This document shows, in pieces, positions 9,050 through 61,171 of a stretch of 64,000 bases of DNA (position 1 is its first letter; every line of letters starts with the position of its first letter). The stretch is from IMG/VR virus record IMGVR_UViG_3300045594_000145, positions 1 to 64,000 of that record; one strand, given 5' to 3'. This DNA is from a virus. Taxonomy: Duplodnaviria > Caudoviricetes. A program made the position numbers and the translations under genes. The notes under the pieces were generated by a model. That model was not told the origin of the DNA. It ran no database searches and saw only the letters and a program-made list of their open reading frames with translations.

Positions 9050-9616
9050 TTAAGGATTTTGATTTATTTGCATCATATCTTGAGCAATCTTTATAATGTC
9101 TCCTTCAATCCGGTCAAGATCGAGAACATCTTCATTCTTATAGATATAATCATAAAATTTACCTATTTCTTGGAAATCTTCTTCGTCTGCTAGAAATCTG
9201 CGGCATATCTCATGTGTGTCTGGCTTATCTTCTCGTTCTAATGCTCTTAAGAGCCTAATTTTACCATCTACACTTATGTATATAACCTTTAGAATAAATA
9301 CTTGAGGTAAATCTCTCATAGTTTTTAATTCAGAGAGCGTAAAGATTCCAATGTTTACTTTATCTTGCGATAAGTCATCCATTGAAACCCCATAATGCCA
9401 TCCTCTAAACTCATTTGAAATAAGCCAACCTTTTTTCGACCAATCTGCATCTGATATGAAGTGATACGCATCAAGAGATTCATTATCTCTCTTTGGTCTT
9501 GTGGTTGTTCGTATAATTTTATGCACGGTCTCAGAAGCACGACTAGCAACTCCATCTAAGATGGAATCTTTGCCAGCCGCACTCGGGCCGATTATAGCAA
9601 TAACTTTATAAATCAA
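9050..9616 (-). CDS. gmk: Guanylate kinase-like protein
   Basis: GPSAAGKD P-loop, TTTRPKRDNE, YHFIS, WHYG. Confidence 0.85.
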   Translation of the reverse strand: MIYKVIAIIGPSAAGKDSILDGVASRASETVHKIIRTTTRPKRDNESLDAYHFISDADWSKKGWLISNEFRGWHYGVSMDDLSQDKVNIGIFTLSELKTMRDLPQVFILKVIYISVDGKIRLLRALEREDKPDTHEICRRFLADEEDFQEIGKFYDYIYKNEDVLDLDRIEGDIIKIAQDMMQINQNP

Positions 9617-12600: not shown

Positions 12601-14154
12601 TGGATATTCTTTGGTTTTATATCCTTTACAAGCAATCTGAATTGCTCTTCTTGAAGAGGCGGTTCCGAATGTAGCAACTAATGTAGCTCCTAATTCTTTT
12701 CTAGCAAAATCTTTAATATCAGAATTAAAGTTTTGTCCACGCTCTTCTTTAATACGCTGAATAATCTTTGGTCTTACTGATGGACACAAGTCTAAATCAA
12801 TATCTCCAAGACCTTGCGTATCTTTATTCATATATCTCTCAAATAAATCTTGATGAAGTGCTATAGGATCGGTCTGCGTGATTTTCATCAGGTAATGGTT
12901 TAGTCCTGCGCTCGAACTCCCTCTTCCACACCCCACGGTAGACCCTTCATTCCAAAATGTATCTACATAGTGCTGTAAAGTAATAGGATAGTCGAACATG
13001 TTTGTGCCAAGTCTAGCACCGACAACTCTTTTAATATCGGCTTCTTTTTCAAGTTCCTTATAATAAGCAGGCTGTTGTAATTTTTTTTCCTTTAATGCTT
13101 CTTGACATTGATTTATCCAATATCTTTCTGATTTATCATCTGAGGTAAACATACTTGATAATATTGGGTATTCTTTTTGAAATTCAAGAGGAGGAGTTTT
13201 CTTAGGATAATCTTTGACTTCTACTCTAGGAATTCTTTGAGGATGCCGCAGATCATATTCAGTAATTTTGTCAAATATCTCCTGTGCGGTATCACAACAT
13301 TCTTGATATACTCTTTCAGTATCTTCACCAAAAGCTGCCCCTAGATGCTTTAATATTTCTTCTTCTGATTGAAGGTATGAATAGTGATAAAAACTATCTG
13401 TTTCACGTTCTCCATCTTTACTTCTTAAGAAAGCTGCATGAACGTTTCTTTTGTCTGCTCTTTCATAATGAGCGTCGCAAGATGTTTCAATTTTGATATT
13501 CTGACTGTGAGCAATCTGATACAATTTTTTATTTACTTCTATTTGTTCTTTAGATGCGCCCGGCGGTATTTCAATATAAAAGTCATCCTTAAATATATCT
13601 TTACACCAATCTAAGAAAGAAATAATTCTGCTATAAGCAAGAGTTTCTTCTTCTTTATTTGCTTTTTCTCTTGCCATTATTAACTGTTTTACATTTGCGG
13701 ATAATTCCCCGGCAAGACAAGCAGTGGTTGCAATCAGATGGCCAGGGTTTCCTCTAACGATCTTTTTGAGTTCACTTTTAAGAGTTGGCACTCTTTCAAG
13801 ACCTCTATCCGAATAAGCTTGGAGCCATGATTCAGAAGAAAGTATCCGCAACTGTTTATGTCCAATTGCATCTTTTGCAATTAATAAGAAATGATAATAG
13901 GGTTGTTTTGCGCCACGTTGTTCAACTAAATAGATTTCATTCCCAATACCTAATTTTAAATCTGGATACTTTTCGCGCATTTCGCATATCTTAATACTGG
14001 CGCTTAGACATTCATGGTCAGTATAAACAAGACCTTTCAGACCTATCTCTTGCGCTCTCTCCGCAAGAGATTCATGCGTATTAATGGCATCTATGAGTCT
14101 TAAATTTGAATAGTCTGTATGATTATGTAAATCAATTACTCTCTTATTTATCAT
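9613..14154 (-). CDS. dnaE: DNA polymerase III alpha subunit, 3 exons (14154-12262, 11954-11305, 11038-9613; ~1322 aa)
   Basis: PHP domain (LHNHTDYS, TDH), GRGS, DIDLD, HASG; splicing restores GLTKYD|FLL and GYGFSVIHSTSY in frame. Confidence 0.93.
11039..11304 (-). mobile_element. Group I intron 2 in dnaE (266 nt, no ORF)
   Basis: P1 AGCGU/GCGCU with U.G at 5' splice site; P7 GACUA/UAGUC (GTATCGACTATC, AAGAAATAGTCAG); terminal G; in-frame exon join. Confidence 0.88.
11955..12261 (-). mobile_element. Group I intron 1 in dnaE (307 nt, no ORF)
   Basis: Exon GAU pairs with intron GUC (U.G); CTATCGACTATCC and AAGATATAGTCAG core; terminal G before TTT CTT TTA. Confidence 0.9.
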
Positions 14155-38844: not shown

Positions 38845-38878
38845 AAAAATAACTGCAAGACTCTATCATGCAGTTATT
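38845..38878 (-). terminator. Terminator of the large noncoding transcript
   Basis: AATAACTGCA...TGCAGTTATT hairpin plus U-tract. Confidence 0.7.
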
Positions 38879-38964
38879 AATACATAGGTTATAGCCTGTA
38901 TTCAGAATTGCACTGAATGTTATCTACTAAGACAGACAGTTTAGCAGGATTATCGCACCTGCTA

Positions 38965-39560
38965 GGCGACTTAGGCTGAGAAAATTGACCTTCATTTACT
39001 TACATCCTTGCTCGGTTGGCCGCGCAATTTCACACAACTGTTTTACAATTGTAGTAAGTATCGACACTGGTTTTGTGAAAACCAGCAAACTCTTACTATA
39101 TCCTCAGATAACTTTCCTTTCCTAACAGCTCCCCTTGGAAGGGTTCGATAGCTCCCGCCACCTAAGTTAAATTAGTAATTGTACTTGTTTGCCCTATACC
39201 TTGCGAGCTAGTAGCATCTGTATGTTACAACAGAATAAGTCGATATGTCAGAATATAGTCGAGCACGCTTTTGCTTTTGTTAGAAAACTTTTCAATATCC
39301 AATTGATTTTTCATATTTTCATAAAAGTTTCGCGTAATAACGATTTATTAGTCGATGTGGTGCTCGTTCGGTATCCCACTCTTTTGGAGTGGATCCAACC
39401 AACACCGCCTTCCTTTCGCGTCACCTACTCAGTTTATTTGCTGTTTACAAGTGATGTTTCAATCGACTCGTTGCAAATAATGAAGCCCGCACTTAAGTTT
39501 GACGAACTTTGCACGAACAACCTCTATCCGTAATCGTATATTTCTATACTTATTTACCGG
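38965..39560 (-). ncRNA. Large structured ncRNA, ROOL-like (boundaries approximate)
   Basis: No sense ORF between promoter 39872-39900 and terminator 38845; many hairpins; GAGTAGG, CTCCAAAAGAG, GCAAAAG, GCTCGCAAG and 3' GAAGG..TCTCAGCCT segments resemble ROOL as I recall it; not verified with a covariance model. Confidence 0.55.
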
Positions 39561-39730
39561 CTACGAACCGATAACTGCTCTAATAACTATAAAATCTGCA
39601 CGAAGTTATAGCTAGCACTACGCATAATATAGAGTCTTTCTGTGGAAGCATTACACTCGCAAAGCACGTTGAACTTTGCTTTGGCCCCATTACTGGGGTT
39701 ATCCTTGGCTACGGCTACGAAGACTAGCCG

Positions 39731-39803
39731 CTGAGAATTTAGCTTATTGACCGAAGTCATAATTTCTAGGCAATACCACGTAGAGGTATCTCAATCATTG
39801 CCC
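39731..39803 (-). ncRNA. HDV-like ribozyme A
   Basis: P1 GGGCAAU/AUUGCCU (G.U), P2 UGAGA/UCUCA, P3 ACC/GGU, L3 UCUACGU, P1.1 CU/AG, P4 UUCG hairpin, J4/2 GCUAA. Confidence 0.8.
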
Positions 39804-39896
39804 GACTGGCTTGCGCCAGCTTCTTTTGTCGTTTCTATTAATAAATTAAGTTTTCCTTAACTTATATAATAATTATATCATATTTTTTAAAATGAG

Positions 39897-40526
39897 TCAA
39901 GAAATTTTTGAAAGAATTAATTCACTTTCCGGAAGTGTTTCTACCCACTCGCAAAAAATTCTCCACTCTGGTAAACGATGGTTTTTTCTTTGAGAATAAA
40001 TAGTCTTTAATTCTCTATAGTTAGTAACTATGCGCGCAGTCAAACGGAAACCCGCAGGATTAGAATATAGAATCTCTAAATATTTCTCATTTAACTCTCT
40101 TCCATAAAGTTCTTTTTGTTCTTTTGTTTCAGCTAAATCTGATTTTTGAAGAAGATCTTCATATTTAGCAATTTTGTCTCTCATAATTTCTATGATGCGC
40201 GGATCAACTTCTTTCATATAACTTGTATCAAGATCAAAAGAAGTAATTCTGTGCATTGTAGACTGAGAGGAAACAAAATTTGCAAAACGGTATCTTTCAA
40301 ATTCTACCCACGCCTTATTGGAAAAGCAAAGATCGAACATTACGGTTATTCCAGTTAAAAATTGGTCTTCACCGCATCCTTTAGGAGAATTTGCAAGAGC
40401 TTTAACCGTCTTAGTAATCTCTGGGGTTGCTTTTGAAAGGTCTGTTAAGTAAGAAAATTTAGAGCCTTGAATAGATTCTTCTAATCCGTAAACATGGACA
40501 TTTGAAATTATATCATCAATTTCCAT
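39897..40526 (-). CDS. ThyX-like (flavin-dependent thymidylate synthase-like) protein
   Basis: EFERYR..SSQSTMH, TNYREL..QRKNHRLPEW. Confidence 0.6.
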   Translation of the reverse strand: MEIDDIISNVHVYGLEESIQGSKFSYLTDLSKATPEITKTVKALANSPKGCGEDQFLTGITVMFDLCFSNKAWVEFERYRFANFVSSQSTMHRITSFDLDTSYMKEVDPRIIEIMRDKIAKYEDLLQKSDLAETKEQKELYGRELNEKYLEILYSNPAGFRLTARIVTNYRELKTIYSQRKNHRLPEWRIFCEWVETLPESELILSKIS

Positions 40527-41071: not shown

Positions 41072-41117
41072 ATAAGAATCTTTAATAAGAATAACATATT
41101 TTTTAAAAATTGTCAAG

Positions 41118-41190
41118 TGGACACTTTTGGAGTCGAACCAAATTCCAAGGCTCTTCAAACCTCTGCTATAACCGTATCAGCTAAGTGTCC
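41118..41190 (-). tRNA. tRNA-Phe(GAA)
   Basis: Full cloverleaf, loop TTGAAGA. Confidence 0.85.
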
Positions 41191-41195
41191 ATAAA

Positions 41196-41256
41196 TTTTG
41201 GTATCATGGCTCGAACATGAGATTGCCGACCGTTTTACCTACTAAACTATACCAAA
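41196..41256 (-). ncRNA. tRNA-like RNA lacking an anticodon arm (#1)
   Basis: Acceptor TTTGGTA/TACCAAA, D arm GTTT/AAAC, 11-nt linker, T arm TCATG TTCGAGC CATGA. Confidence 0.65.
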
Positions 41257-41307
41257 ATATGCTATTTTTATTTTTAAATACAGAATACTGCTATTGAATG
41301 GGAAGAA

Positions 41308-41691
41308 TTAGTCTTTTTCATGCGCCTTGTTATACTCATCTTCAATCTTAACCAGAACCGCTCCAAGACATTGTGGATATAAATATACACGAATGGCAAC
41401 ATCGCAATATTCTGCCCCTTTTTTGATGAGGACACTTCCATCCATTTCAAATTCCTTCAATACATCAAATAACAAATCTAGATTATGGCATAGATATTCT
41501 TCTGCTTGATATGTGTTGAAAGTATAAGAACCAGAACTATTGCCTGTGATACTATCTTCATTTATTACTTCATCGTTTAAATATTCTTCAAGGTCATTAA
41601 AAGTATCATAATCCTCAAAATCAATATTATCTTTTACATACTCTAAGATATCATTCTTTACTGCCTGTTCATAATCATAAGTTTCTGACAT
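41308..41691 (-). CDS. Acidic hypothetical protein (family with 52594 and 54502)
   Basis: DSITGNSSGSY..AEEYLCHNLDLL..DVAIR. Confidence 0.65.
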   Translation of the reverse strand: MSETYDYEQAVKNDILEYVKDNIDFEDYDTFNDLEEYLNDEVINEDSITGNSSGSYTFNTYQAEEYLCHNLDLLFDVLKEFEMDGSVLIKKGAEYCDVAIRVYLYPQCLGAVLVKIEDEYNKAHEKD

Positions 41692-41752
41692 AAGACTCTC
41701 CTGTCTATCATAAACCATAAACTTTGTCAAACTATTTCATACGATATTTTAG

Positions 41753-41824
41753 TATCCCCACAGAGATTCGAACTCTGATTGTAGGTTTAGAAGACCTATG
41801 CACTCTCCTTTGTCCTGTGAGGAT
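41753..41824 (-). tRNA. tRNA-Arg(TCT)
   Basis: TAGGT CTTCTAA ACCTA. Confidence 0.8.
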
Positions 41825-41828
41825 ATAA

Positions 41829-41901
41829 GGGTGTCATTCAAGAATCGAACTTGAATAAGATGTTTCACAGACATCCACGCTACCTTTGCGCCAATGACAC
41901 C
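41829..41901 (-). tRNA. tRNA-His(GTG)
   Basis: GATGT CTGTGAA ACATC; encoded G-1. Confidence 0.85.
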
Positions 41902-41904
41902 AGA

Positions 41905-41978
41905 TGGAGGACGGAGTGAGAGTCGGACTCACGATCTAGGGGTTGCGGCCCTATGCCTTACCGCTTGGCTAACCGTTC
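41905..41978 (-). tRNA. tRNA-Cys(GCA)
   Basis: TAGGG CCGCAAC CCCTA; CCA encoded. Confidence 0.8.
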
Positions 41979-42014
41979 TAGTTTTGAATTAACTACTTTC
42001 TTAAGAAAGTATAG

Positions 42015-42085
42015 TATACGCACTAAGAATTGAACTTGGATTTAGCGCTTATCAGGCGCTCGTTCTACCATTGAACTATGCGTAT
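42015..42085 (-). tRNA. tRNA-Ile(GAT)
   Basis: AGCGC CTGATAA GCGCT. Confidence 0.8.
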
Positions 42086-42091
42086 ATATAA

Positions 42092-42164
42092 TGTTCTGAT
42101 TGGGACTTGAACCCAAAATCTTATTCTTGAGAGGAATACGATTTAACCATTCGTCTACCGCAGC
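42092..42164 (-). tRNA. tRNA-Glu(CTC), degenerate acceptor
   Basis: TATTC CTCTCAA GAATA; good T arm. Confidence 0.55.
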
Positions 42165-42170
42165 AAATAG

Positions 42171-42259
42171 CGCAAACTGCTAGCTTCGATCTCGCGCTAC
42201 GAATAATCGTAGGACGGTTTAGCGAACCGTTGGTTTCAACCAGACTCACCCAAGTTTGC
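42171..42259 (-). tRNA. tRNA-Ser(GCT)
   Basis: ACGGT TCGCTAA ACCGT, long variable arm. Confidence 0.8.
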
Positions 42260-42263
42260 ATAG

Positions 42264-42345
42264 TCGGTTGCGGGAGACTTGAACTCCCACGTCTTTCAAC
42301 ATTAGCTTCTAAGGCTAACGCGTCTGCCAGTTCCGCCAGCAACCG
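42264..42345 (-). tRNA. tRNA-Leu(TAG)
   Basis: TTAGC CTTAGAA GCTAA. Confidence 0.85.
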
Positions 42346-42351
42346 ATAACT

Positions 42352-42423
42352 TGTGGAGTAATGAGATCGAACCGATATTATCTGTTTGGTAAACAGACTT
42401 ACTAGCCGTTGTAAGACCTCCAC
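42352..42423 (-). tRNA. tRNA-like gene with ACC anticodon (Gly-type), weak T stem
   Basis: TCTGT TTACCAA ACAGA; acceptor GTGGAG/CTCCAC. Confidence 0.5.
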
Positions 42424-42436
42424 AATTTTGAAGCAG

Positions 42437-42507
42437 TCTCCGCAGAATGAATCGAACATTCGTCTCTCGGTCCCAGGCCGAGTGGTCTACCATTAACCTA
42501 CACAGAG
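42437..42507 (-). tRNA. tRNA-Pro(TGG)
   Basis: CTCGG CCTGGGA CCGAG. Confidence 0.8.
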
Positions 42508-42511
42508 ATAG

Positions 42512-42585
42512 TGGAAGATAAAGAGATCGAATCTTTAGTCTATCGGTTATGGGCCGAGTGCTTTATCCTATTAAGCTAATCTTCC
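42512..42585 (-). tRNA. tRNA-Met/Ile2(CAT)
   Basis: TCGG CCCATAA CCGA. Confidence 0.75.
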
Positions 42586-42621
42586 AATAATTGCATATTT
42601 TATAGCGTTATGCTACGCTAA

Positions 42622-42694
42622 GGCCAAGTAGTGGAATTGAACCACTAACCTCCTACTTACGAAGTAGTTGCTCTACCGATTGAGCTAAATTGGC
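42622..42694 (-). tRNA. tRNA-Thr(CGT)
   Basis: CTAC TTCGTAA GTAG. Confidence 0.8.
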
Positions 42695-42705
42695 AATTTG
42701 ATAAG

Positions 42706-42785
42706 TCCTTGAAGTGAGGTTCGAACTCACACGCTCTCGCAGTGGATTTTAAGTCCACTTTGTCTGCCAGTTGCAACATCCAAGG
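42706..42785 (-). tRNA. tRNA-Leu(TAA)
   Basis: GTGGA CTTAAAA TCCAC. Confidence 0.85.
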
Positions 42786-42790
42786 AGTAG

Positions 42791-42864
42791 TGCGCGACGT
42801 AGAACTCGAATCTACAATAACCTATTTTTGAGACAGGCTCCTCTGCCAGTTGGGACAGCCGCGC
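42791..42864 (-). tRNA. tRNA-Leu(CAA), short variable loop
   Basis: CCTGT CTCAAAA ATAGG. Confidence 0.75.
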
Positions 42865-43023
42865 AAGATTTTAAATTTATTTAATTCTTTCTTTGTTTAT
42901 GTATATATTATATCATTATATTAGGAGATTGTCAAGCTTTCTCTTTTAAAAATGAGGACAAAAGACGGAAGAATTACCTACGTCTTTCTGGTATCGTTCC
43001 TACACTTGGCAGGACAATGAAAT

Positions 43024-43079
43024 TAGAGGCAGCCAGACTCGAACTGACATATTGACTCTTACCCTTGAGCTATACCTCT
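43024..43079 (-). ncRNA. tRNA-like RNA lacking an anticodon arm (#2)
   Basis: Acceptor AGAGGTA/TGCCTCT, D arm GCTC/GAGT, 6-nt linker CAATAT, T arm GTCAG TTCGAGT CTGGC. Confidence 0.7.
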
Positions 43080-43186
43080 TCTGTTTGATCGTGCACAATC
43101 CTCCACAGATGGAGTGCCGCTTAGTAAATAAAAGAACAAGCAGGCTTATTCAGTCAGATGGCACTGCCATCTATTACATGCGGCAA

Positions 43187-43306
43187 TTTGTTCGGTAAGG
43201 ATTTGCACCTTACAAGCATAGTCATTGCTTTTTCAACTTTAATTAGAGTGATAGCTCTATGCGGTGCTCACTGGACACCCGTGTTTACCTATTCCGCCAC
43301 GAACAA
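43187..43306 (-). ncRNA. Expanded tRNA-like RNA (120 nt)
   Basis: Acceptor TTGTTCG/CGAACAA, GGAATAGGTA D-loop, GGTG/CACC arm with 9-nt loop, long GCATAG/CTATGC arm, GTAAGG TGCAAAT CCTTAC T-like arm. Confidence 0.6.
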
Positions 43307-43311
43307 TTTAA

Positions 43312-43530
43312 TTACTTACTCAATTTAATATCTTCAATCTGGGCACGAGTTTCAAGCACATATAAATACTGCCCCATGATTGATGCCTGCTTTCTCAATA
43401 AATCAATTGGGCATGTAGGTGTAAACTCTAACTTTCCCGCATCATATTTAACAAGCATCTTATGTAATTTCTGGTACTTATCATCTAAATCTTTATATTC
43501 CTTCACAAATCTAACTTTGTAATCTTCCAT
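43312..43530 (-). CDS. Small conserved phage protein (crAss001_48-like)
   Basis: DYKVRFVKEY..LLRKQASIMGQYLYVLETR. Confidence 0.65.
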   Translation of the reverse strand: MEDYKVRFVKEYKDLDDKYQKLHKMLVKYDAGKLEFTPTCPIDLLRKQASIMGQYLYVLETRAQIEDIKLSK

Positions 43531-43544
43531 GTTATTCTCCTTTC

Positions 43545-43925
43545 TTATAGTCCTAATTCCTTTGGTGTATAATCACATTCTCTTTTCATGCCAATGAACT
43601 TAGTCCCTCTATCAAAAGGAAATAGAAGAATATTTTCTCCGCCTTCTGTTTCAATATCAATGTTCTCACGATTGGCGTTATATAGTTTGCAAATTGAAAT
43701 TATTTTTCTATCTGCTTGACTGATTACGGTTTTTAGATAATCATGTTCTTCCTGCGTTAAGATTGGTTCTGGCTTAATAGGCTCCCATGCATTAGGCGAT
43801 ATTTCTGTTAATTTACAGATACCATTATTTCTGCCAATCAAGCAATTATCACATCTATCTTGTTTTTCACAACAATTCCGTATTGTTTCGATAGCTTCAT
43901 TCAATTTTTTGATTTCATTTTCCAT
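43545..43925 (-). CDS. Hypothetical protein
   Basis: Cys-rich N-terminus, ends YTPKELGL; resembles 40528 ORF. Confidence 0.55.
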   Translation of the reverse strand: MENEIKKLNEAIETIRNCCEKQDRCDNCLIGRNNGICKLTEISPNAWEPIKPEPILTQEEHDYLKTVISQADRKIISICKLYNANRENIDIETEGGENILLFPFDRGTKFIGMKRECDYTPKELGL

Positions 43926-44097
43926 ATTATTTTCCTCTTTCAATATTATCTTATCATTTTTAAATTAATTGTCTATAATTTGTAACCATTTTCGCAGTTA
44001 GCCTAAAGCCCGTTTTGCTAGATACCGATGGCCGAAGCCATAGAGTCCTACCATCAAACGATGACCTAATATTAAGTGGAGGTGTGGGGCAATGCTC

Positions 44098-44727
44098 CTA
44101 TAAATATTCAAAATGATAACCCAAATAGCTTGTTTTGTTATTATATCCAGTAAGAGACTCACTTATCTTTTTCCCTACATTATCCACTTTTTTGGTTCTT
44201 GTATAGTTGTTATCTATCAACCACTGAGCACATTCAACTACAGAGGAAAACTCTTTTTCTAATTCTTTAACTTTAATTGGTTTTGCGTGAATTTCTGCAC
44301 TACTTTTTATCGGAATATTATTTTGAATTAATATATCATGAACGCTATCTGTAGATATTCCTAATTTCGTGGCTGTTTTTCTTATATTCTGTTCTTCTTT
44401 ATAAGTTTTAATAACAAGATCTCTATCAATATAAGGTTTTCCATCCCCGCCTTTTGTTGCGTTATACCCATTTCCATAAGAGCCGTATCGACTAATCCAA
44501 TAGATTTCTCTTTCTTCAGCTTCTGAATCTTCACATTGTTCTACCTCTTCAACTGAAAAATTTTCAACACCATATTTGTTCATGGCAGAATAAAGAGGCC
44601 GGTGTTCCATCCGACATTTCTTATAATCTTGACAATGTTCTTTAAATCTTTTTTCTATCGTGCCCAGAGTTTTTCCGATATAAATTTTGCCATTAATTGA
44701 ATTTGTTATTTTATAAATATATGCCAC
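44098..44727 (-). CDS. Free-standing GIY-YIG endonuclease within tRNA cluster
   Basis: YIYKITN..IYIGKT..RFKEH, REIYWI, GYN. Confidence 0.88.
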   Translation of the reverse strand: MAYIYKITNSINGKIYIGKTLGTIEKRFKEHCQDYKKCRMEHRPLYSAMNKYGVENFSVEEVEQCEDSEAEEREIYWISRYGSYGNGYNATKGGDGKPYIDRDLVIKTYKEEQNIRKTATKLGISTDSVHDILIQNNIPIKSSAEIHAKPIKVKELEKEFSSVVECAQWLIDNNYTRTKKVDNVGKKISESLTGYNNKTSYLGYHFEYL

Positions 44728-44833
44728 GATGACTAACTCCTTTTCTATAAAAACTCTATAGAAATTGGTAAAGTAATATCACAATAATTCTTGTAATCTT
44801 GCTCGCCTACCAATTACGACACATGCCGAATAG

Positions 44834-44904
44834 TAGTGATTATAGGTAATGCTCCTATGTCTACCGCTTATCAGGCGATTGCTCTACTTTTGAGCTAAAT
44901 CACT
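44834..44904 (-). tRNA. tRNA-Ile(GAT), non-canonical T loop
   Basis: ATCGC CTGATAA GCGGT; T loop AGCATTA. Confidence 0.7.
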
Positions 44905-44908
44905 AAAG

Positions 44909-44979
44909 AGTTCTATATCGGGATTGAACCGATGCTATCTGCTTGGAGGGCAGATGTACTACCATTATACGAATAGAAC
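44909..44979 (-). tRNA. tRNA-Gly(TCC)
   Basis: TCTGC CCTCCAA GCAGA. Confidence 0.8.
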
Positions 44980-44980
44980 A

Positions 44981-45054
44981 TGGCTGGCTCTAAGTGAATT
45001 GAACACTTATACTCTCCTTAACAGGGAGGAGTTCTACCATTGAACTAAGAGCCA
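44981..45054 (-). tRNA. tRNA-Asn(GTT)
   Basis: CTCC CTGTTAA GGAG; CCA encoded. Confidence 0.8.
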
Positions 45055-45175
45055 ATATTAAGCACTATCGCAGTACCCGCGTCCCTTGCTATTATTGATA
45101 GCGCCGGAGACAGCTGATTTTTTAAACGTCGCGACCGAATCATCCTAGATGTTAGACGGTCTATTCCAGACGTAG

Positions 45176-45246
45176 CACAGGAGCAAGGATTTGAACCTCG
45201 ATAAGCAGTTTTGGAGACTGCCGTCCTGCCGTTGGACGACTCCTAT
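45176..45246 (-). tRNA. tRNA-Trp(CCA)
   Basis: GCAGT CTCCAAA ACTGC. Confidence 0.85.
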
Positions 45247-45251
45247 ATAAG

Positions 45252-45326
45252 CCTTCTCTGAGAGAGTTGAACTCTCAACCTCTTCGTTCGTAGCGAAGCC
45301 GTCTATCCAATTGACTATAAGAGAAG
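45252..45326 (-). tRNA. tRNA-Arg(ACG)
   Basis: CTTCG CTACGAA CGAAG. Confidence 0.75.
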
Positions 45327-45332
45327 ATAATA

Positions 45333-45403
45333 AGCCGGCTGGGAGAGTTGAACTCACATTTACAGCTTACAAGGCAGTTGGTCTACCGTTAATCTAAGCC
45401 GGC
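45333..45403 (-). tRNA. tRNA-Thr(TGT)
   Basis: Loop CTTGTAA, acceptor GCCGGCT/AGCCGGC. Confidence 0.8.
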
Positions 45404-45407
45404 ATAG

Positions 45408-45480
45408 CACGCTCATAGAGATTTGAACTCTAATTATGCGCTTAGAAGGCGCATGCCCTATCCAATTAGACTATAAGCGT
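45408..45480 (-). tRNA. tRNA-Arg(TCT)
   Basis: TGCGC CTTCTAA GCGCA. Confidence 0.85.
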
Positions 45481-45484
45481 ATAG

Positions 45485-45557
45485 TTGCGTGAGGCCGGAA
45501 TTGCACCGGCGACCTCTTGGTTATGAGCCAAGCGAGCTACTACTGCTCCACTCCGCG
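45485..45557 (-). tRNA. Initiator tRNA-fMet(CAT)
   Basis: 5' CGCGG with C1:A72 mismatch, loop CTCATAA. Confidence 0.85.
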
Positions 45558-49625: not shown

Positions 49626-50285
49626 TCACTTCTCGCAGAAGTCACAAACTTTAACCTTAGTGACAATGCGGCGCCCTCTGCGGTCACGCAATTCAAGAAT
49701 AGGCTTACAGACAAGGCCTTCCATCACTAAAGAAGGATCCTCAGCAACAAGAGAAGTAGGCTTTGTCTTGACAAAAGCAATAGCTTCAGCTAGTGTCGCA
49801 GAAGGAAGTACAACTGGGGCCGCAGATATACCAAATTTAGTGGCAACATCTTCAACATCCTGCCGAGAAAGGTATAGGTCGCCCTCAGGGAAATATACAT
49901 CAAAGAGCGCAAAGCCGCAAGAGTCGTGTAAATATCTTCCTCCACCCTTTTGAATCTTCGCCCCATAACCTTCTCCAAAGAGAATAACCTGAGTCGAGCC
50001 AAAGACTTGCTCAAAGAGTTCCTCGGTGTTAGAGTCTCCAAAAGTAGAAGTCAAGTAGAAAACTAGATTAGAAGGAAGTTGCGCCCTGTCAGTGTGTCCC
50101 GCAAAAGATACTCGATGCCCATCCCAGATAACTCTGGTATTAGTTCCGTCAATTTTTTCAGTGCAACAGAATGGCAAGTCTTTAATAAACTCAAGTTCCT
50201 CAGAACGATATGCGCCCTCTATTAACCTCTTAGTCCCATCTTCCGCTCTGCGGAATGGAGTTTCTATCTTTTGATATTCAATCAT
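49626..50285 (-). CDS. ATP-dependent RNA ligase (Rnl2-like nucleotidyltransferase)
   Basis: TEKIDGTN, FGEGYG, FALFDV, EGLV, TKVK. Confidence 0.8.
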   Translation of the reverse strand: MIEYQKIETPFRRAEDGTKRLIEGAYRSEELEFIKDLPFCCTEKIDGTNTRVIWDGHRVSFAGHTDRAQLPSNLVFYLTSTFGDSNTEELFEQVFGSTQVILFGEGYGAKIQKGGGRYLHDSCGFALFDVYFPEGDLYLSRQDVEDVATKFGISAAPVVLPSATLAEAIAFVKTKPTSLVAEDPSLVMEGLVCKPILELRDRRGRRIVTKVKVCDFCEK

Positions 50286-53124: not shown

Positions 53125-53415
53125 TTAGTTGTCGGCCTTCAAATTATAAATAGGATATAAGTGATCAAGAACCTCCGCAGTAGGCGCGATTAATTCTTCA
53201 ATCTCTGCGGCGTCCTTATAGGCATCTGGGGCTTCGTCTAAAGTATTGGCAGAAACAGAGGTAGTAACAATATCTTCCATCTGCTCCTTATAGGCATTGA
53301 GATCAATTGTTGCCTTAGCAACTGTTCTACTCATTGCGCGACCCGCGCCATGTGGGGCTGAGCAGTTCCATTCTTCATTCCCTAGACCCCTACAAATTAG
53401 AGTGCCGGCGCGCAT
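53125..53415 (-). pseudogene. rtcB: C-terminal fragment of RtcB RNA ligase
   Basis: GLGNEEWNCSAPHGAGRAMSR, DEAPDAYK, PIYNLKA; N-terminal part absent. Confidence 0.8.
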
Positions 53416-56697: not shown

Positions 56698-57351
56698 TTA
56701 GCAGTTTGCTTCATCTGCTTCATCACAGAGCTGCTCCTCTCCCTCAGCATTAAACAAACCTACATAGTCTTTATCAAATAGACCATCCACTCCGCCGTAA
56801 TCAATAAATACAATTCGACCGTCATAAATACCAATATTTCCGTCATGGGCATCTTTAAGTAAAAAGATATAAAGGTCCCCATTTTCAGCCCACATTTTAG
56901 ACATTCCGTCTAAAAAGTTACTCACCATAGCATTTACATCTTCAGCAGACATTCCGAGTTCAGCGGCATTGTAGAGAGAAGTTTTAACAACTTCCTTCAA
57001 TTCATATTTCCAGCCATCAGCAAAAGCATTTTCGTGAGACTCAGAGATCTGATTAGTTCTGCTCACATAGGAATTATCTTCTTCCTTGCTATTAGGATAA
57101 TATCCTTTGCAAGTTGCGCGAGCCATCTTAATGCACTCATAATCGCTATGCTGTAGGTCAATAGGACATAACACATTATACTTAGATCCGAATTCGTTGA
57201 AAATACCAAGCTCATTGAGATTGGTGTAGAGAATATCGAGGTTAGAAGATTCTCCACTTTCAACATTCTCAGTGTTGTAGTGCTTCTCAACATAGTCTGG
57301 GTAAATCTCAGTTCTTCTAAATAAACCATAACGTACATCTTCTGGAGTCAT
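56698..57351 (-). CDS. Protein kinase-like protein
   Basis: DAHDGNIG catalytic loop and FIDYG. Confidence 0.6.
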   Translation of the reverse strand: MTPEDVRYGLFRRTEIYPDYVEKHYNTENVESGESSNLDILYTNLNELGIFNEFGSKYNVLCPIDLQHSDYECIKMARATCKGYYPNSKEEDNSYVSRTNQISESHENAFADGWKYELKEVVKTSLYNAAELGMSAEDVNAMVSNFLDGMSKMWAENGDLYIFLLKDAHDGNIGIYDGRIVFIDYGGVDGLFDKDYVGLFNAEGEEQLCDEADEANC

Positions 57352-57689
57352 AATTGTATTCTCCTTTTCTTTATACATATAGTATACCATAAAAGGTAAA
57401 AAACGTCAACAGAGAAGTTTTAGAGATCTTGATAGTATTGTTACCAAAGCACGGAGCGCAATTTCTACTAAGATGTCAACTAAGATCCCACATGACGAGT
57501 CGATCTCCTGTTCACACACTTTTCTGTCCTTCCCCCACTTTTTATCTACTTTTCTCCCACATTTTGCAGGAAATCTTCACTTTTGGTAGCACTGTTTCTT
57601 CCGGTTTTTAGATATGATTTTAGCTTAATCGTTCATTTAGGCTCAGAAAAACGGGTAAATATCCGAAAAAGGGCAAAAGCTAAATTTAA

Positions 57690-58490
57690 AGCTGCTCAGA
57701 ATCAGCCAAAAGCTTAATTTTCATAGTAAAAAATCGGACAAAAGACTCCTCCGGAGAGAAAAAATTTGCTCTGTGTTTCGTCGGCAAGGCTCTATGCTTT
57801 TAGCTTATCTTAAAGTGCGCGCACGCCCATCATTGGGTTCAATTCTTCAGTCATTATTCCACTATTTGCGGCTAGACATTCCCTAATTTTTGTCTAAAAA
57901 GTCAGGTTTCCCCCATATTTGGTCGAGTTTCTTACATTTTCCCCACAATTTCATCGAGTTTCCTACAATTTTCTCATCCTTCCATCCTATTTCTTCTAAA
58001 AACTGCCTATCCCGCAACGTCTTTTTTCTATTACTGCCAATTATGTGATTTTTATAGCTTTTTCCCTTGTTTTTTCACATATTTATGCTAATAGAGCAAA
58101 TTAAATTTTTCCCTCTACTCTCCCAAAGGAAGGGGCAAAAAGCGCTTTCTTATTCAGCTAGAATTCAGCGAAAAGCTTGATTTTTGAGTCAAAAAATATG
58201 ACAAAACAACTTTCGGAGAGAAAATTTTGTCCTGTGTAATGTCAGAAGAACATTATGCTTTTAGCTGGTTGAAAATCCTGCGCAAAGAGTGCGGCCAGGT
58301 ATGTCAGGATGCGCCGCATTTCAATAAAAACACCTGTGATATAGCTTTAAATTTTTTTTACGGGTATTTACTCGAAAAATGGAAAAACGCTTTTTTAAAG
58401 CGCTAAATAGGAAGCAAAAAGCTTGTTTTTTGAGTCAAAAATCATGACAAAAGACTGCCCGGAGAGGAAAATTTTAGTTAAAAATCTGAC
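57690..58490. repeat. Three degenerate direct repeats (~80-130 bp)
   Basis: AAAAGCTT..AAAAAT..GACAAAA..CGGAGAG.AAAATTT at ~57708, ~58171, ~58417. Confidence 0.65.
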
Positions 58491-58824
58491 ACAGGAGTAC
58501 ACCCAATTTTTGATTTTAGAAGATATTGCGCGATGGACACTTTCTAAAATTTGTCTACCATTTGAAGTCTCACTAGTCCGCCATTTCGGGTTGGACTTTT
58601 TTGCCGTTTCAGTGGTCAAGATTTCCTTGACAAGTGGCCGACATGCGCGTAAAATTGTCGCGTTTGACGGGACACTGTATCTCTTAGTTGCGCCGCAGTT
58701 TATAATTTACTCCAAAAATTTTGTGTACCATTTTCAGAATACAGAATTTTTTTAAGCTTTTTGCACAAAAAAAAATTGTGTACTCATTTCAGAATACAGA
58801 AATTTTTCCAGCTATGGGCGCAAT

Positions 58825-58852
58825 AAAAAAGAGAAGCCGCAAGGCTTCTCTC
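58825..58852 (-). terminator. Intrinsic terminator
   Basis: AGAGAAGCC TTGC GGCTTCTCT plus U-tract. Confidence 0.7.
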
Positions 58853-58863
58853 TAGGTCAACTA

Positions 58864-59157
58864 TTAGAACCAGAATGGAAAATTGAAAATTGAATCAAAG
58901 ATATCGGTTGGCTTGTCATCAATGCGCGTCTCAACAGAGAACCAGGTGCCGTAATCCTTGATGAACTGATTCTTCAATTCATTGTAGTGATCGATTGCGT
59001 CTTCAGCAGACTTCTGCGCCTTCTCAACCTCAGCCGCACGCGCCTTCTTTTCTGCGTTCTTCTTCTTTGTGAGTTCTGCGCTCTTGGCTGCTTCTACTTC
59101 AGCCTTCTTTGCATCCTCGATGTTGTCAAATGTCTTTGTTCCTACTAAATACTTCAT
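58864..59157 (-). CDS. Hypothetical coiled-coil protein
   Basis: ATG 59157 after AAGGAG. Confidence 0.65.
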   Translation of the reverse strand: MKYLVGTKTFDNIEDAKKAEVEAAKSAELTKKKNAEKKARAAEVEKAQKSAEDAIDHYNELKNQFIKDYGTWFSVETRIDDKPTDIFDSIFNFPFWF

Positions 59158-59289
59158 GTGTTTTCTCCTTTGCGGCCCTTGCTGCCGTCTTACTACTGCG
59201 TCTATCACGCAGGAAAAACCTGCCGAAGCAGGTTGTATGCGTAAATGATATATACGTAGAATTATCCCAGTGGATTATCATTTACGACT

Positions 59290-59374
59290 AGAGAATTGGT
59301 TCTTCTACTTCGGCGGCGAACCGCTTCCTTGAATTAGTAGACTGCGCCGCATAGAGGCTTCTCTTATGCAGTCC
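59290..59374 (-). ncRNA. HDV-like ribozyme B
   Basis: P1 GGACUGC/GCAGUCU, P2 AGAGAA/UUCUCU, P3 GCC/GGC, L3 UCUAUGC, long P4, J4/2 CCAA; P1.1 partial. Confidence 0.7.
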
Positions 59375-59544
59375 TAATCAAATCATAATACACATACTTC
59401 TCAGGTATGCCGAGGCTTATTTGCACTGGTCATGACTCCACGCTTATTCGCCATTTCTGCCGCAACCTACTTTCATCGCGATGTCCAGTAAGTTCTTTTG
59501 GTGTAACCATCCTAACAGTAAGGACTGGTAAGATTTGATTGTGA

Positions 59545-59610
59545 TAGATTTAGTTCTCTCGCCCAAGAGCAAGTCCAGCCGCACCCCGTGGAGGTATCTA
59601 ACTTGCGGCC
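59545..59610 (-). ncRNA. HDV-like ribozyme C
   Basis: P1 GGCCGC/GCGGCU, P2 UAGAU/AUCUA, P3 ACC/GGU, L3 UCCACGG, P1.1 CC/GG, P4 CUUGCUC/GGGCGAG, J4/2 CUAA. Confidence 0.8.
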
Positions 59611-59859
59611 ACCCGCTTATCTTATTGAAAGCGGTAGAAAGTCAGTTTTGCTCTTTGAAAAGCTAAGTCAACCTGCCGCCGCAGGATTTAAAGCGTACGC
59701 AACTCTTCTTTTTGGTTAAGAGAGGTATTGACGAGAGAACCGCCCCACGTCTGGGGACTTAGTGGCTTAAGCTTTGACTTCGTACAGTGCTACACTAACT
59801 GAAGTCTAGGCGTTAGTATGTCATTACATTGCAGTAATGGATACTTAATCCTTGTATTT

Positions 59860-59932
59860 TGGGTACGTCTGGAATCGAACCAAAACCTTCTCCCCATACA
59901 AGAGGAGATGCACAGCCACGCACTGTATACCG
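59860..59932 (-). tRNA. Degenerate tRNA-like element (TGT loop)
   Basis: T arm TTTGG TTCGATT CCAGA, TCTCCTC/GGGGAGA stem, GGTAT/GTACC acceptor-like pairing. Confidence 0.45.
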
Positions 59933-59959
59933 TCAGGGTCTTTCACCAAAGGATTATTT

Positions 59960-60030
59960 GTAGAACTTTGTTTAGTCTGGAGCTACCAAATTGTCCACTC
60001 TCGCCACGGGGAGGCGTCTACTATGAGAGC
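59960..60030 (-). ncRNA. HDV-like ribozyme D
   Basis: P1 GCUCUC/GAGAGU, P2 GUAGA/UCUAC, P3 GCC/GGC, L3 UCCCCGU, P1.1 CC/GG, J4/2 CAAA. Confidence 0.78.
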
Positions 60031-60086
60031 ATATAGATTGCGCGGTTACTTACTTGGGCGCGCCAATGAACCGTCTGCCGCAATCT

Positions 60087-60140
60087 TGATGTATTAGTTG
60101 GATATCCAGACACGCCACGAGGAGGCTACATCATGTGTCC
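60087..60140 (-). ncRNA. HDV-like ribozyme E (minimal, 54 nt)
   Basis: P1 GGACAC/GUGUCU, P2 UGAUGUA/UACAUCA, P3 GCC/GGC, L3 UCCUCGU, P1.1 CC/GG, J4/2 CUAA. Confidence 0.85.
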
Positions 60141-60608
60141 ATCCCCTTGCCTAGGAGCTACCTAGACAGGAGTTATATGCTTTCCCTAAGCAGGGGCCGA
60201 AGCCCAAGGGGTTAGTTCGCGTGGGAAACTACCAAGGTGCTAAATCCGATCGGTTGCGCGCAATTTTCCTGACACTCTTTAGACTCGCGAGGAAAATTTC
60301 TAATTCTACGAGCAAGCTTTTCTCTTCTTTATACTTGGTGAGCGTTCATCCAAGCGGCGTTTACTTCTTTATCCTCGCATAAACACCAAAACGCGAGTCG
60401 GCCGCAGGCCGTTTATCCTTTAATTTTACCACTAGAGAAGTAGGAATATGGGTATGTTCACTCGCGGAACATACAAGTAGCGCTTTGCTCTAATCACGGG
60501 ATAGAGGTACGAGATCGGCAGTTCCTGTTTACCGCAAAGGTGGAGGTTTAGGGGTGCGTGAACCTGTTTCTTTCAATTATAACGCCCGAAGTTCTAAGAG
60601 GCAGCTTA

Positions 60609-60938
60609 TTACTTATTAGCTTTATAATTCTTCCAGAAATCGGAGTTGACTATAAAGTTATTCATATGGAGATAGAAGTTATCACTATAACCGGTTGCCG
60701 CATTAGTCATGTGATACTGATCAAACCATGCTTCTTCACTGTAACCATTTGCTCTATCGTGGAAAGTAACACGATACACTGAATTGACGCCACTGTGGTC
60801 TTCATACCTATTATCGTATCTTTCATGGATAACCGCGTAGAAGCGACCTTTGTAAACGTCCTTTTCTATTTGTTTATTCATGTGACGAACAGCAGTTCTA
60901 GCGCGTCTTTTATTCGCTCTTACTTTTTTGTCTATCAT
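60609..60938 (-). CDS. Hypothetical protein
   Basis: ATG 60938 after GAGGGAG; promoter 60964-60992. Confidence 0.65.
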   Translation of the reverse strand: MIDKKVRANKRRARTAVRHMNKQIEKDVYKGRFYAVIHERYDNRYEDHSGVNSVYRVTFHDRANGYSEEAWFDQYHMTNAATGYSDNFYLHMNNFIVNSDFWKNYKANK

Positions 60939-61001
60939 GTTAACTCCCTCACTTTCTATATATATTATATCATAGATTTTGAAGATTGTCAAGCAGATGT
61001 T

Positions 61002-61057
61002 TGATGATTCTCAGTAGAAGAGCAGTTGCGCCGCGAGCAGGCGATCATCATGCAACC
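61002..61057 (-). ncRNA. HDV-like ribozyme F (minimal)
   Basis: P1 GGUUGC/GCAACU, P2 UGAUGAU/AUCAUCA, P3 GCC/GGC, L3 UGCUCGC, compensatory P1.1 GC/GC, J4/2 CUGA. Confidence 0.75.
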
Positions 61058-61109
61058 ATATGGGGAGCCGTCTGGCAAACGACTCCCAGCAAAAGAGAGA
61101 GTATACAAA

Positions 61110-61171
61110 CGAACTTTTAGAACCCGAAGGGGTAGCCGCATTGCCACGTCAAGGCAAGTTCGATAATGCGG
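61110..61171 (-). ncRNA. HDV-like ribozyme G (variant)
   Basis: P1 CCGCAUU/AAUGCGG (C-G first pair), P2 CGAACUU/AAGUUCG, P3 GCC/GGC, L3 UUGACGU, UUCG P4, J4/2 CUAA. Confidence 0.62.

Follow-up and report, generated by a model that had tools for sequence, protein, structure and literature searches.

The stretch of DNA analysed here (the window) comprises the first 64 kb (64,000 nucleotides, nt) of a 108,945-bp virus record in IMG/VR (IMGVR_UViG_3300045594_000145), a phage genome with terminal repeats and 36% G+C. Between two minus-strand open reading frames (ORFs) of this phage, ORF109 and ORF97, lies a stretch of 1.45 kb without any ORF over 81 aa and with a G+C content of 45-50%, and in this stretch four elements are found that resemble theta ribozymes, a minimal class of self-cleaving ribozymes related to that of hepatitis delta virus (HDV) (Table 1). 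Positions are those of the window, and each element is named by its first nucleotide (G1 where this is a G), directly 5' of which cleavage is predicted. A first-pass annotation of the window had described an array of four such ribozymes segmenting a noncoding transcript; all four were found on the minus strand, with ends differing by at most 2 nt from those first given, but the array is larger than proposed, further elements being present at 61057 and 61171 and a separate one at 39803.

Table 1. Features at the ribozyme locus and at one separate site, with the scores of two covariance models built from published theta ribozymes
Feature	Positions	Strand	P1+P3 model	P2+P3 model	Remark
HDV-like fold, C-G first pair, in the 3' untranslated region of ORF 61572-61204	61106..61171	-			relaxed scan
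Further theta-type ribozyme just upstream of the promoter	61002..61057	-	30.4 bits, E 2e-4	35.4 bits, E 9e-7	covarying GC/GC P1.1
Sigma-70/sigma-A type promoter-like site	60964..60992	-			TTGACA, 17 nt, TATAAT, TG extension
ORF109, first cistron of the unit	60609..60938	-			109 aa, basic N-terminus; ORF list
Noncoding tail, 468 nt	60141..60608	-			terminal hairpin stops 2 nt short of the first predicted cleavage site
Ribozyme 1, minimal theta-type HDV-like	60087..60140	-	44.5 bits, E 3e-7	48 bits, E 4e-10	G1 60140, predicted catalytic C 60097; fits published format base for base
Hairpin spacer between ribozymes 1 and 2	60031..60086	-			8-bp closing stem, ends 4 nt before G1 60030; kept in relatives
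Ribozyme 2, HDV-like, short P4	59960..60030	-	26.4 bits, E 1.5e-3	partial match only, 14.7 bits, E 0.22	G1 60030, likely catalytic C 59970
tRNA-like remnant	59860..59932	-			canonical T arm; ARAGORN only
Two-hairpin module, ~80 nt	59767..59845	-			present or absent independently
Ribozyme 3, HDV-like, 6-bp P4, CUUG loop	59543..59610	-	32.1 bits, E 1e-4	18 bits, E 0.03	G1 59610, predicted catalytic C 59553
Ribozyme 4, probable HDV-like, long P4 hairpin	59289..59374	-	15.9 bits, E 0.22	no match at E <= 10	G1 59374, candidate catalytic C 59299
Terminator-like hairpin between ribozyme 4 and ORF97	59214..59234	-			UUCG loop and U tract; read from sequence
ORF97, last cistron	58864..59157	-			97 aa, strong Shine-Dalgarno sequence; ORF list
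Strong terminator after ORF97	58853-58828	-			terminator scan
Separate HDV-like candidate	39731..39803	-	10.5 bits, E 2.8		CU/AG covarying P1.1, UUCG P4 hairpin; descriptor match

The transcription unit

The promoter that had been proposed upstream of the elements agrees with the consensus at 12 of 12 positions, lies on the same strand and in the same unit as the ribozymes and is kept in 10 of 10 contigs from related phages (described below). As for the transcript, the 1.45-kb stretch is noncoding as first described, showing neither an ORF nor codon periodicity, but the unit starts with ORF109 and not with noncoding RNA. In the relatives the variable sites of the two ORFs are distributed 13/12/35 (ORF109, a third-position bias, p = 2e-4) and 6/7/20 over the codon positions, compared with 25/39/25 over the three phases of the 468-nt tail (p = 0.11). 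Hidden coding in the 1.45-kb stretch was considered and rejected, no long frame appearing under TGA, TAG or TAA reassignment. ORF109 gave no family match and its relatives are only near-identical, forming one near-identical protein cluster; a protein identical to ORF97 was found on contigs from 135 blocks of public assemblies. The terminator-like hairpin in front of ORF97 is invariant in the ten relatives and is also the terminator portion of a chance rsmX alignment. Between the promoter and the upstream ORF 61572-61204 no terminator was found; the two ribozyme-like elements 61171 and 61057 are situated there instead.

The local hairpins of the 468-nt tail carry a few compensatory changes in the relatives. 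A reading of this tail as a giant ornate RNA was unsupported by the z-score of its minimum free energy or by Rfam, and no match of the 1.4-kb stretch to ROOL or GOLLD was obtained, either in the window at Rfam gathering thresholds or in the region at E <= 10.

Fold of the elements

When read on the minus strand, the four elements share the order P1, P2, P3, a 7-nt L3, P3', P1', P1.1, L4/P4, a J4/2 starting with C, and P2' (P, L and J denoting paired, loop and joining segments), and all four can be parsed as the HDV double pseudoknot with a G1.U first pair, just as the first-pass annotation had read them. This first pair is invariant in the relatives. The stem sequences are unlike among the elements, L3 is alike: the form U-NN-N-C-G-Y is present in 60140 and 60030, and the L3 of 59610 ends in G in the window copy and in U or C in most relatives. 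P1.1 consists of CC/GG in three of the four elements.

The J4/2 junctions read CTAA (60097), CAAA (59970), CTAA or CCAA (59553) and CCAA or CTAA (59299), where the candidate catalytic C is invariant in every copy compared of all four elements and the second junction position varies. The earlier reading needs adjusting in ribozyme 2, where the C of an upstream CTAA at 59975 is replaced by T in most relatives and the catalytic base is therefore most likely C 59970, in the junction C-A-A-A.

The element at 61171 has a perfect 7-bp P1 and P2, a P4 hairpin and a CTAA junction and is present in the relatives with small changes; its activity is uncertain because its first base is not G. The separate candidate at 39803 does not score significantly with the published-sequence model and is located in a second ORF-poor region of ~1 kb (38845-39900), in which Rfam gave no ROOL or GOLLD match.

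Comparison with published theta sequences

To search for such elements a descriptor modelled on the published theta format was used, which was written after the elements had been seen. It gave six matches in the 108,945-bp genome, all on the minus strand, compared with a mean of 0.11 and a maximum of 2 in 100 dinucleotide shuffles, and five matches within 59200-61100 compared with 0.001 in 1000 shuffles. The matches beyond the four are 61057 and 39803, and a relaxed scan adds 61171. Because the descriptor postdated the sight of the elements, two covariance models, P1+P3 (R1) and P2+P3 (R2), were built from seven published theta sequences, none of them from the window, and run over the whole window on both strands without filters. 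The five best matches of the P1+P3 model each fall exactly on a predicted element. Descriptor and Infernal searches, named in the first-pass annotation as a way of checking it, gave six matches in the genome and significant scores for three of the four elements (Table 1).

The folds exist and match published theta ribozymes. Membership of the theta or minimal HDV-like class is well supported for 60140, 60030 and 59610 by these comparisons, and 59374 is probably an HDV-like ribozyme, so that the identity first assigned to all four is borne out for three and probable for the last. Two further controls were set aside: the one on the catalytic base was dropped, the loose descriptor (with free L4 and J4/2 lengths) also matching A, G or T at this position, and a count of pairing among the paralogues (100% paired, 6 of 10 pairs changed on both sides) is circular and was given no weight, the copies having been chosen by a descriptor of pairing.

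At gathering thresholds Rfam found only tRNAs in the whole window, and at E <= 10 the region gave chance-level matches together with a sub-threshold match to RF02682 (F. prausnitzii HDV model) on 60030-59961, which at 17.7 bits against a threshold of 44 is the best of the Rfam HDV matches.

Variation among related phages

The locus occurs, complete or in part, in sequencing runs of more than ten studies on pig, manure and wastewater samples, metatranscriptome libraries included. Ten contigs of relatives were compared, of which JGI contig L013 was obtained by a pattern search and nine (L017-L025) by an exact look-up of the ORF97 protein; one more contig, L016, is identical to the window. The flanks of the locus (61700-60086 and 59766-58820) are 94-98% identical among the relatives. 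With the published-sequence model 51 matches at E <= 1 were found in the ten contigs, all on the sense strand and all at predicted elements, and the flanking genes gave no match at E <= 1.

Covariation is clearest in ribozyme 3, where 98.8% of the cells in the orthologues are paired compared with at most 42.5% when the partners were slid. In the window its P1 is GGCCGC/GCGGCU; relatives have GGCUAU/GUAGCU or GGCUAU/AUAGCU, with two pairs changed on both sides and one passing through C-G, U.G and U-A, and in one contig P4 goes from CUUGCU/GGCGAG to CUUGUU/AACAAG with one pair changed on both sides. In P2 the window copy has a single mismatch, at which the relatives have A-U or G.U. Ribozyme 2 occurs with three different 3' halves, each keeping a C-N-A-A junction and a P2 of six pairs in which one base is bulged, and a U.G pair of its P4 becomes C-G in relatives.

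The stems of ribozyme 1 never vary and so give no covariation information, but the element as a whole is strongly constrained, with a diversity of 0.010 among the ten relatives (0.000 for the 61057 element) compared with 0.07 in the adjacent ORF and tail. Its sole change is at position 2 of J4/2, T or C (CTAA/CCAA), which is variable in the published set too. Among 11 copies of ribozyme 4 only one of 34 stem positions varies (A to G, with G.U kept) compared with 11 of 52 loop and junction positions, and its P4 loop alternates between UUCG, CUUG and GUCG, a pattern that suggests constraint, short of proof. The folds, all lying on one strand, are kept by selection in these natural relatives.

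It is extremely improbable that the elements resemble the HDV fold by chance, in a noncoding stretch richer in G+C. Such a reading can point to the missing HDV match at Rfam gathering thresholds and to the weak fourth element, but has to face the shuffle controls, the significant matches of models from published sequences, the strand exclusivity in the relatives and the compensatory changes in ribozyme 3, and for 60140, 60030 and 59610 it is already contradicted.

In further searches the 1.4-kb stretch gave no match to GenBank phages with blastn, the flanking small proteins used as probes in IMG/VR found no relatives, and exact-pattern scans of IMG/VR with the cores of ribozymes 1 and 4, in which near-identical records may have been left out, returned nothing. 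A loose scan of IMG/VR for two L3 cores 86-116 nt apart was uninformative, with at least 120 matches, those examined being all chance or coding repeats in GC-rich genomes and none having two descriptor matches. When two canonical theta elements separated by 32-62 nt were required, a strict scan gave 0 matches, which, the pattern being narrow, is a weak sign of rarity.

A variable slot within the locus

The distance between the two ORFs ranges from 1368 to 2198 nt among the relatives because the middle of the locus (~60040-59766) is mosaic. In the window this slot contains ribozyme 2 and a tRNA-like remnant bearing a T arm. Some relatives have the arrangement of the window with another hairpin before the T arm, and others have an extra HDV-like ribozyme and, 9 nt behind it, a mini tRNA-like module with a short "anticodon" loop that varies from contig to contig, although the contigs are near-identical elsewhere. 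Further tRNA-like modules are present in the slot of relatives, one of them reaching 27 bits with the Rfam tRNA model (threshold 29). The mini modules, seen at L017:2780-2990 and near 3270-3350 in L017, L019 and L023, have canonical T arms and carry short hairpins where an anticodon arm would be expected; one of them also shows a typical D loop. In a variant without ribozyme 2 the slot holds a pseudoknot resembling preQ1-I (RF00522, 29.9 bits against a threshold of 39, E 0.02). This small hairpin with an A-rich tail lies at L021:3172-3216, a similar motif occurs in L017 and L019 just before the ~80-nt module, and no QueC or TGT gene was found in the phage. The ~80-nt module is missing in L013, L018 and L020 and stands in other contexts in L017, L019, L021, L023 and a contig from an RNA library. 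In L017 and L023 ribozymes 1 and 2 seem to be duplicated, but the extra copies flank runs of N and were rejected as scaffold artefacts.

Theta ribozymes in the literature are mostly associated with tRNAs, and the position of tRNAs was therefore analysed. ARAGORN and Rfam place no tRNA 3' end within 5 nt of any G1, the nearest call ending 250 nt upstream of 59610, which agrees with the earlier statement that no element directly follows a tRNA. No theta ribozyme was found after any of the 20 tRNA genes of the phage, despite six or seven elsewhere in its genome. A tRNA-Thr called at 59932-59860 was discarded, having a poor cloverleaf with many wobbles and mismatches and no Rfam tRNA match at E <= 10; the call is absent from all relatives, several of which have exchanged the arm preceding the T arm. 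A cloverleaf upstream of ribozyme 1, suggested by folding, was likewise discarded, since the sequence changes of L022 and L025 are incompatible with its closing stem and agree with a long hairpin.

The T-arm-bearing remnant at 59932-59860, the additional mini tRNA-like modules in relatives (one at 27 bits against 29) and the usual company of theta ribozymes would all suit a former tRNA cluster in which the tRNAs have degenerated and the ribozymes persist with little function. Such a decayed processing array is nevertheless unlikely, as every tRNA-like module ends more than 5 nt from any cleavage site and a ribozyme, where it adjoins such a module, lies upstream of it, none of the 20 real tRNAs of the phage is followed by a ribozyme, and the ribozymes are, unlike relics, more constrained than the flanking ORF.

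The mosaic structure, with a middle part exchanged between phages otherwise 94-98% identical, raises the question of whether the ribozymes are selfish or neutral RNA modules that spread by recombination at their shared catalytic core and cleave without benefit to the phage. Some of the breakpoints do fall within ribozyme cores, as seen in the 3'-half variant of ribozyme 2, in P1 of ribozyme 3 in L024 and in a break of an RNA-library contig at 60010, inside L3. All copies are, on the other hand, on the strand of the transcription unit, 60140 and 61057 lie outside the variable slot, are nearly invariant and keep a fixed position in all relatives, and no reverse transcriptase or other mobility gene was found in the genome, so that this explanation too is improbable.

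A more speculative possibility, which we regard as rather doubtful, is that the locus is a hypervariable island of RNA cassettes, in which the theta ribozymes would serve both as cutters that set the modules free and as short conserved joints for exchange between phages, and the modules as effectors. The mosaic structure and the types of module, namely mini tRNA-like RNAs that combine a T arm with a fast-changing "anticodon" loop, a pseudoknot resembling an aptamer, and hairpin RNAs, are observed; the role as effectors is speculation, under which the modules might act as decoys for host defences that target tRNA or sense RNA, and some of them might be circularised by host RtcB.

RNA libraries and RNA-end genes

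Contigs from metatranscriptome libraries of two studies map to the locus. As these data are assembled contigs they show the presence of the sequence in RNA libraries and neither ends nor strand. In one library the coverage is very uneven and no contig bridges a cleavage site. A 240-nt contig on 60253-60494, a variant with 21 differences, has a depth of 94.7 compared with 4-7 on the flanking ORFs in one wastewater metatranscriptome library, a figure to be read as a hint only, since contig depth cannot rank parts of the locus.

When analysing the sequence directly upstream of the elements, a stable hairpin ending 1-5 nt before G1 was found for five of seven elements, compared with 17% of the positions in the region; ribozyme 2, with its 56-nt upstream hairpin, joins them when the folding window is long enough. 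Upstream hairpins can shield an HDV ribozyme from misfolding with flanking sequence; in the present locus the 3' end of the upstream product would, in addition, be capped by a hairpin.

Two genes of the phage are of interest for the fate of such ends. One encodes a 219-aa protein with an RNA ligase domain (PF09414, 57 bits; 49626-50285, minus strand), whose NCBIfam matches to Rnl2 and DRB0094 are far below cut-off. Kienbeck et al. 2024 (PMC10879173) found an ORF annotated as DRB0094-family RNA ligase to be 140-fold enriched among phages that carry theta ribozymes, a parallel that is loose because of these low matches. The other, a 96-aa ORF at 53125-53415 (minus strand), matches only the C-terminal quarter of RtcB (PF01139 positions 327-425 of 426, 57 bits); no RtcB similarity was found in the neighbouring small ORFs and its product is a fragment or mini-protein rather than a ligase. 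Neither an end-healing kinase domain of the PF13671 type nor a CCA-adding enzyme was found in the phage genome.

By established knowledge, cleavage by HDV-like ribozymes gives 5'-hydroxyl and 2',3'-cyclic phosphate ends, which are substrates of RtcB-type ligases, and the pieces between ribozymes could accordingly be joined into small circular RNAs, the more so as the phage carries the RNA ligase domain protein and the RtcB-like fragment. We regard this as very unlikely: the RtcB piece is too short at 96 aa to be a ligase, a PF09414 ligase needs 3'-hydroxyl and 5'-phosphate ends and no PF13671-type kinase to heal them was found, and no back-joined contigs are among the joints reported, although contigs are a poor test of this.

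Proposed processing of the transcript

The explanation that we favour, and consider likely, is that a cluster of theta-type self-cleaving ribozymes in one sense-strand unit segments an early polycistronic phage transcript. Transcription would proceed from the promoter at 60992-60964 through ORF109 and then through ~1.45 kb of noncoding RNA, and the unit would also receive read-through from the upstream operon. Each ribozyme is predicted to fold co-transcriptionally and to cut directly 5' of its own G1, at 60140, 60030, 59610 and probably 59374, which would leave a 2',3'-cyclic phosphate on the upstream piece, mostly 1-5 nt past a stable hairpin, and a 5'-hydroxyl, buried in the ribozyme fold, at the start of the downstream piece. 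The products would be an ORF109 mRNA with a 468-nt tail and small RNAs of ~110, ~420 and ~236 nt, sizes that follow from the G1 positions as originally calculated. The last piece may end at the hairpin 59234-59214. A 5'-hydroxyl mRNA for ORF97, as had also been proposed, is expected only with read-through, this conserved terminator-like hairpin lying in between. The purpose may be to give each RNA module defined, nuclease-resistant ends and to uncouple neighbouring cistrons. Cleavage in vivo, the chemistry of the ends and this purpose are what we infer from the sequence and its conservation.

Several observations weigh against this explanation. None of the Rfam HDV families (RF00094, RF02682 and relatives) reaches its gathering threshold in the window. 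The match of 59374 to the P1+P3 model is not significant and the P2+P3 model does not find it (Table 1), and this fourth ribozyme is off-consensus, its L3 having UG in place of the theta CG and its P1.1 being reduced to one pair (CU against AC). Individual copies are defective or altered: ribozyme 3 has a one-base deletion in P3' in L023 and a recombinant P1 with an A.C mismatch in L024, and ribozyme 4 in L021 lacks the first U of L3. In G001, a distantly related phage of 100 kb, neither DNA similarity to the locus nor a theta match was found. The minimum free energy of the 468-nt tail is not below that of shuffled sequences (z = +0.2), and therefore some of the released pieces may be other than structured functional RNAs. 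Finally, contigs of an RNA library other than the one with uneven coverage bridge the sites at 61057, 60140, 60030 and 59610, which may represent uncleaved precursor, carried-over DNA or both.

If cleavage takes place as proposed, theta ribozymes would be general makers of RNA ends for noncoding RNAs and mRNAs of phages, beyond the trimming of tRNAs, and the phage would set its RNA ends (5'-hydroxyl, cyclic phosphate) without host RNases.

Genomic setting

The 20 tRNA genes of the phage are situated at 41-45.5 kb (window 41117-45557). Its replication genes include a PHP-type Pol III alpha, DnaB, gyrase A, NrdD and a PFL-like gene, and the polymerase distantly resembles those of SPbeta-type Bacillus phages and of Enterococcus phages. 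Because of this likeness, the sigma-A-type promoters and the strong Shine-Dalgarno sites, the host probably belongs to the Bacillota. The Pol III alpha-like polymerase is seemingly split into two ORFs on the minus strand ~1 kb apart (9613-11220 and 12253-14154), one corresponding to the HHH_6 part and the other to the PHP plus NTPase part. Downstream of the ribozyme locus, 57300-58900 is also ORF-poor and contains a 62-nt repeat in three copies (57704, 58167 and 58413), and a 55-nt tandem repeat (58714-58823) directly follows the terminator after ORF97.

Comparison with known systems

The elements are most similar to theta ribozymes (PMC10879173), with which they share the fold, the order of segments, the size, the G1.U pair and a J4/2 starting with the catalytic C, some of them also the L3 pattern and most a covarying two-base P1.1. 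The setting is shared too: the phage comes from gut-type samples, the elements are sense-oriented within noncoding DNA, and an RNA ligase gene co-occurs. The supplement of PMC10879173 prints its ribozymes in the same segmented form and its list includes CTAA, CCAA and CAAA junctions. In that study (Kienbeck et al. 2024, PMC10879173) 526 theta matches are reported not to lie beside tRNAs, and 493 of these fall in noncoding regions; the present elements belong to this "isolated" group, since none abuts a tRNA despite 20 phage tRNAs. They differ in density, with six or seven elements within 2.2 kb and four within 0.85 kb compared with at most two per contig, kb apart, in the published theta list, and from the minimal theta L4 in that ribozymes 2, 3 and 4 carry a P4 hairpin; ribozyme 4 in addition breaks the L3 and P1.1 rules.

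With HDV, CPEB3 and the drz families the elements have in common the nested double pseudoknot, 5' cleavage at position 1 and the catalytic C of J4/2, but they lack a retrotransposon context and match no Rfam model at threshold. The tRNA cluster of T4, with its two extra stable RNAs, is processed by host RNases (RNase P, RNase E and others). Like the locus described here, the T4 operon gives one early transcript from which several small structured RNAs are derived, some of them tRNA-like; here, however, self-cleavage would take the place of the host RNases.

About four in ten of the published theta matches are without a known job, as are most self-cleaving ribozymes of bacteria and phages. With several ribozymes in a short, promoter-defined unit the locus could make the question of theta function testable, which is helped by the phage being common in pig, manure and wastewater samples, by the natural compensatory mutants and module swaps and by the presence of the sequence in metatranscriptome libraries. 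As compact, mutually insulated and sequence-diverse cutters the elements may also be of practical interest for building multi-RNA transcripts.

The claim that nothing like this arrangement had been described was too strong, isolated theta matches (PMC10879173) and clusters of self-cleaving ribozymes (PMC6765202) both having been published; for a dense theta array, or for modular exchange of this kind between phages, no description was found in PMC10879173 or in the other literature found. That self-cleaving ribozymes cluster in the DNA of bacteria and phages is a recognised but unexplained phenomenon, for which the processing of polycistronic transcripts has been proposed as a role in bacteria and prophages (PMC6765202). 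The clusters of hammerhead, twister, pistol and hatchet ribozymes covered in that review resemble the present locus in that several ribozymes lie close together near phage genes, but here all are of one class, HDV-like, and the intervening modules are swapped between near-identical phages.

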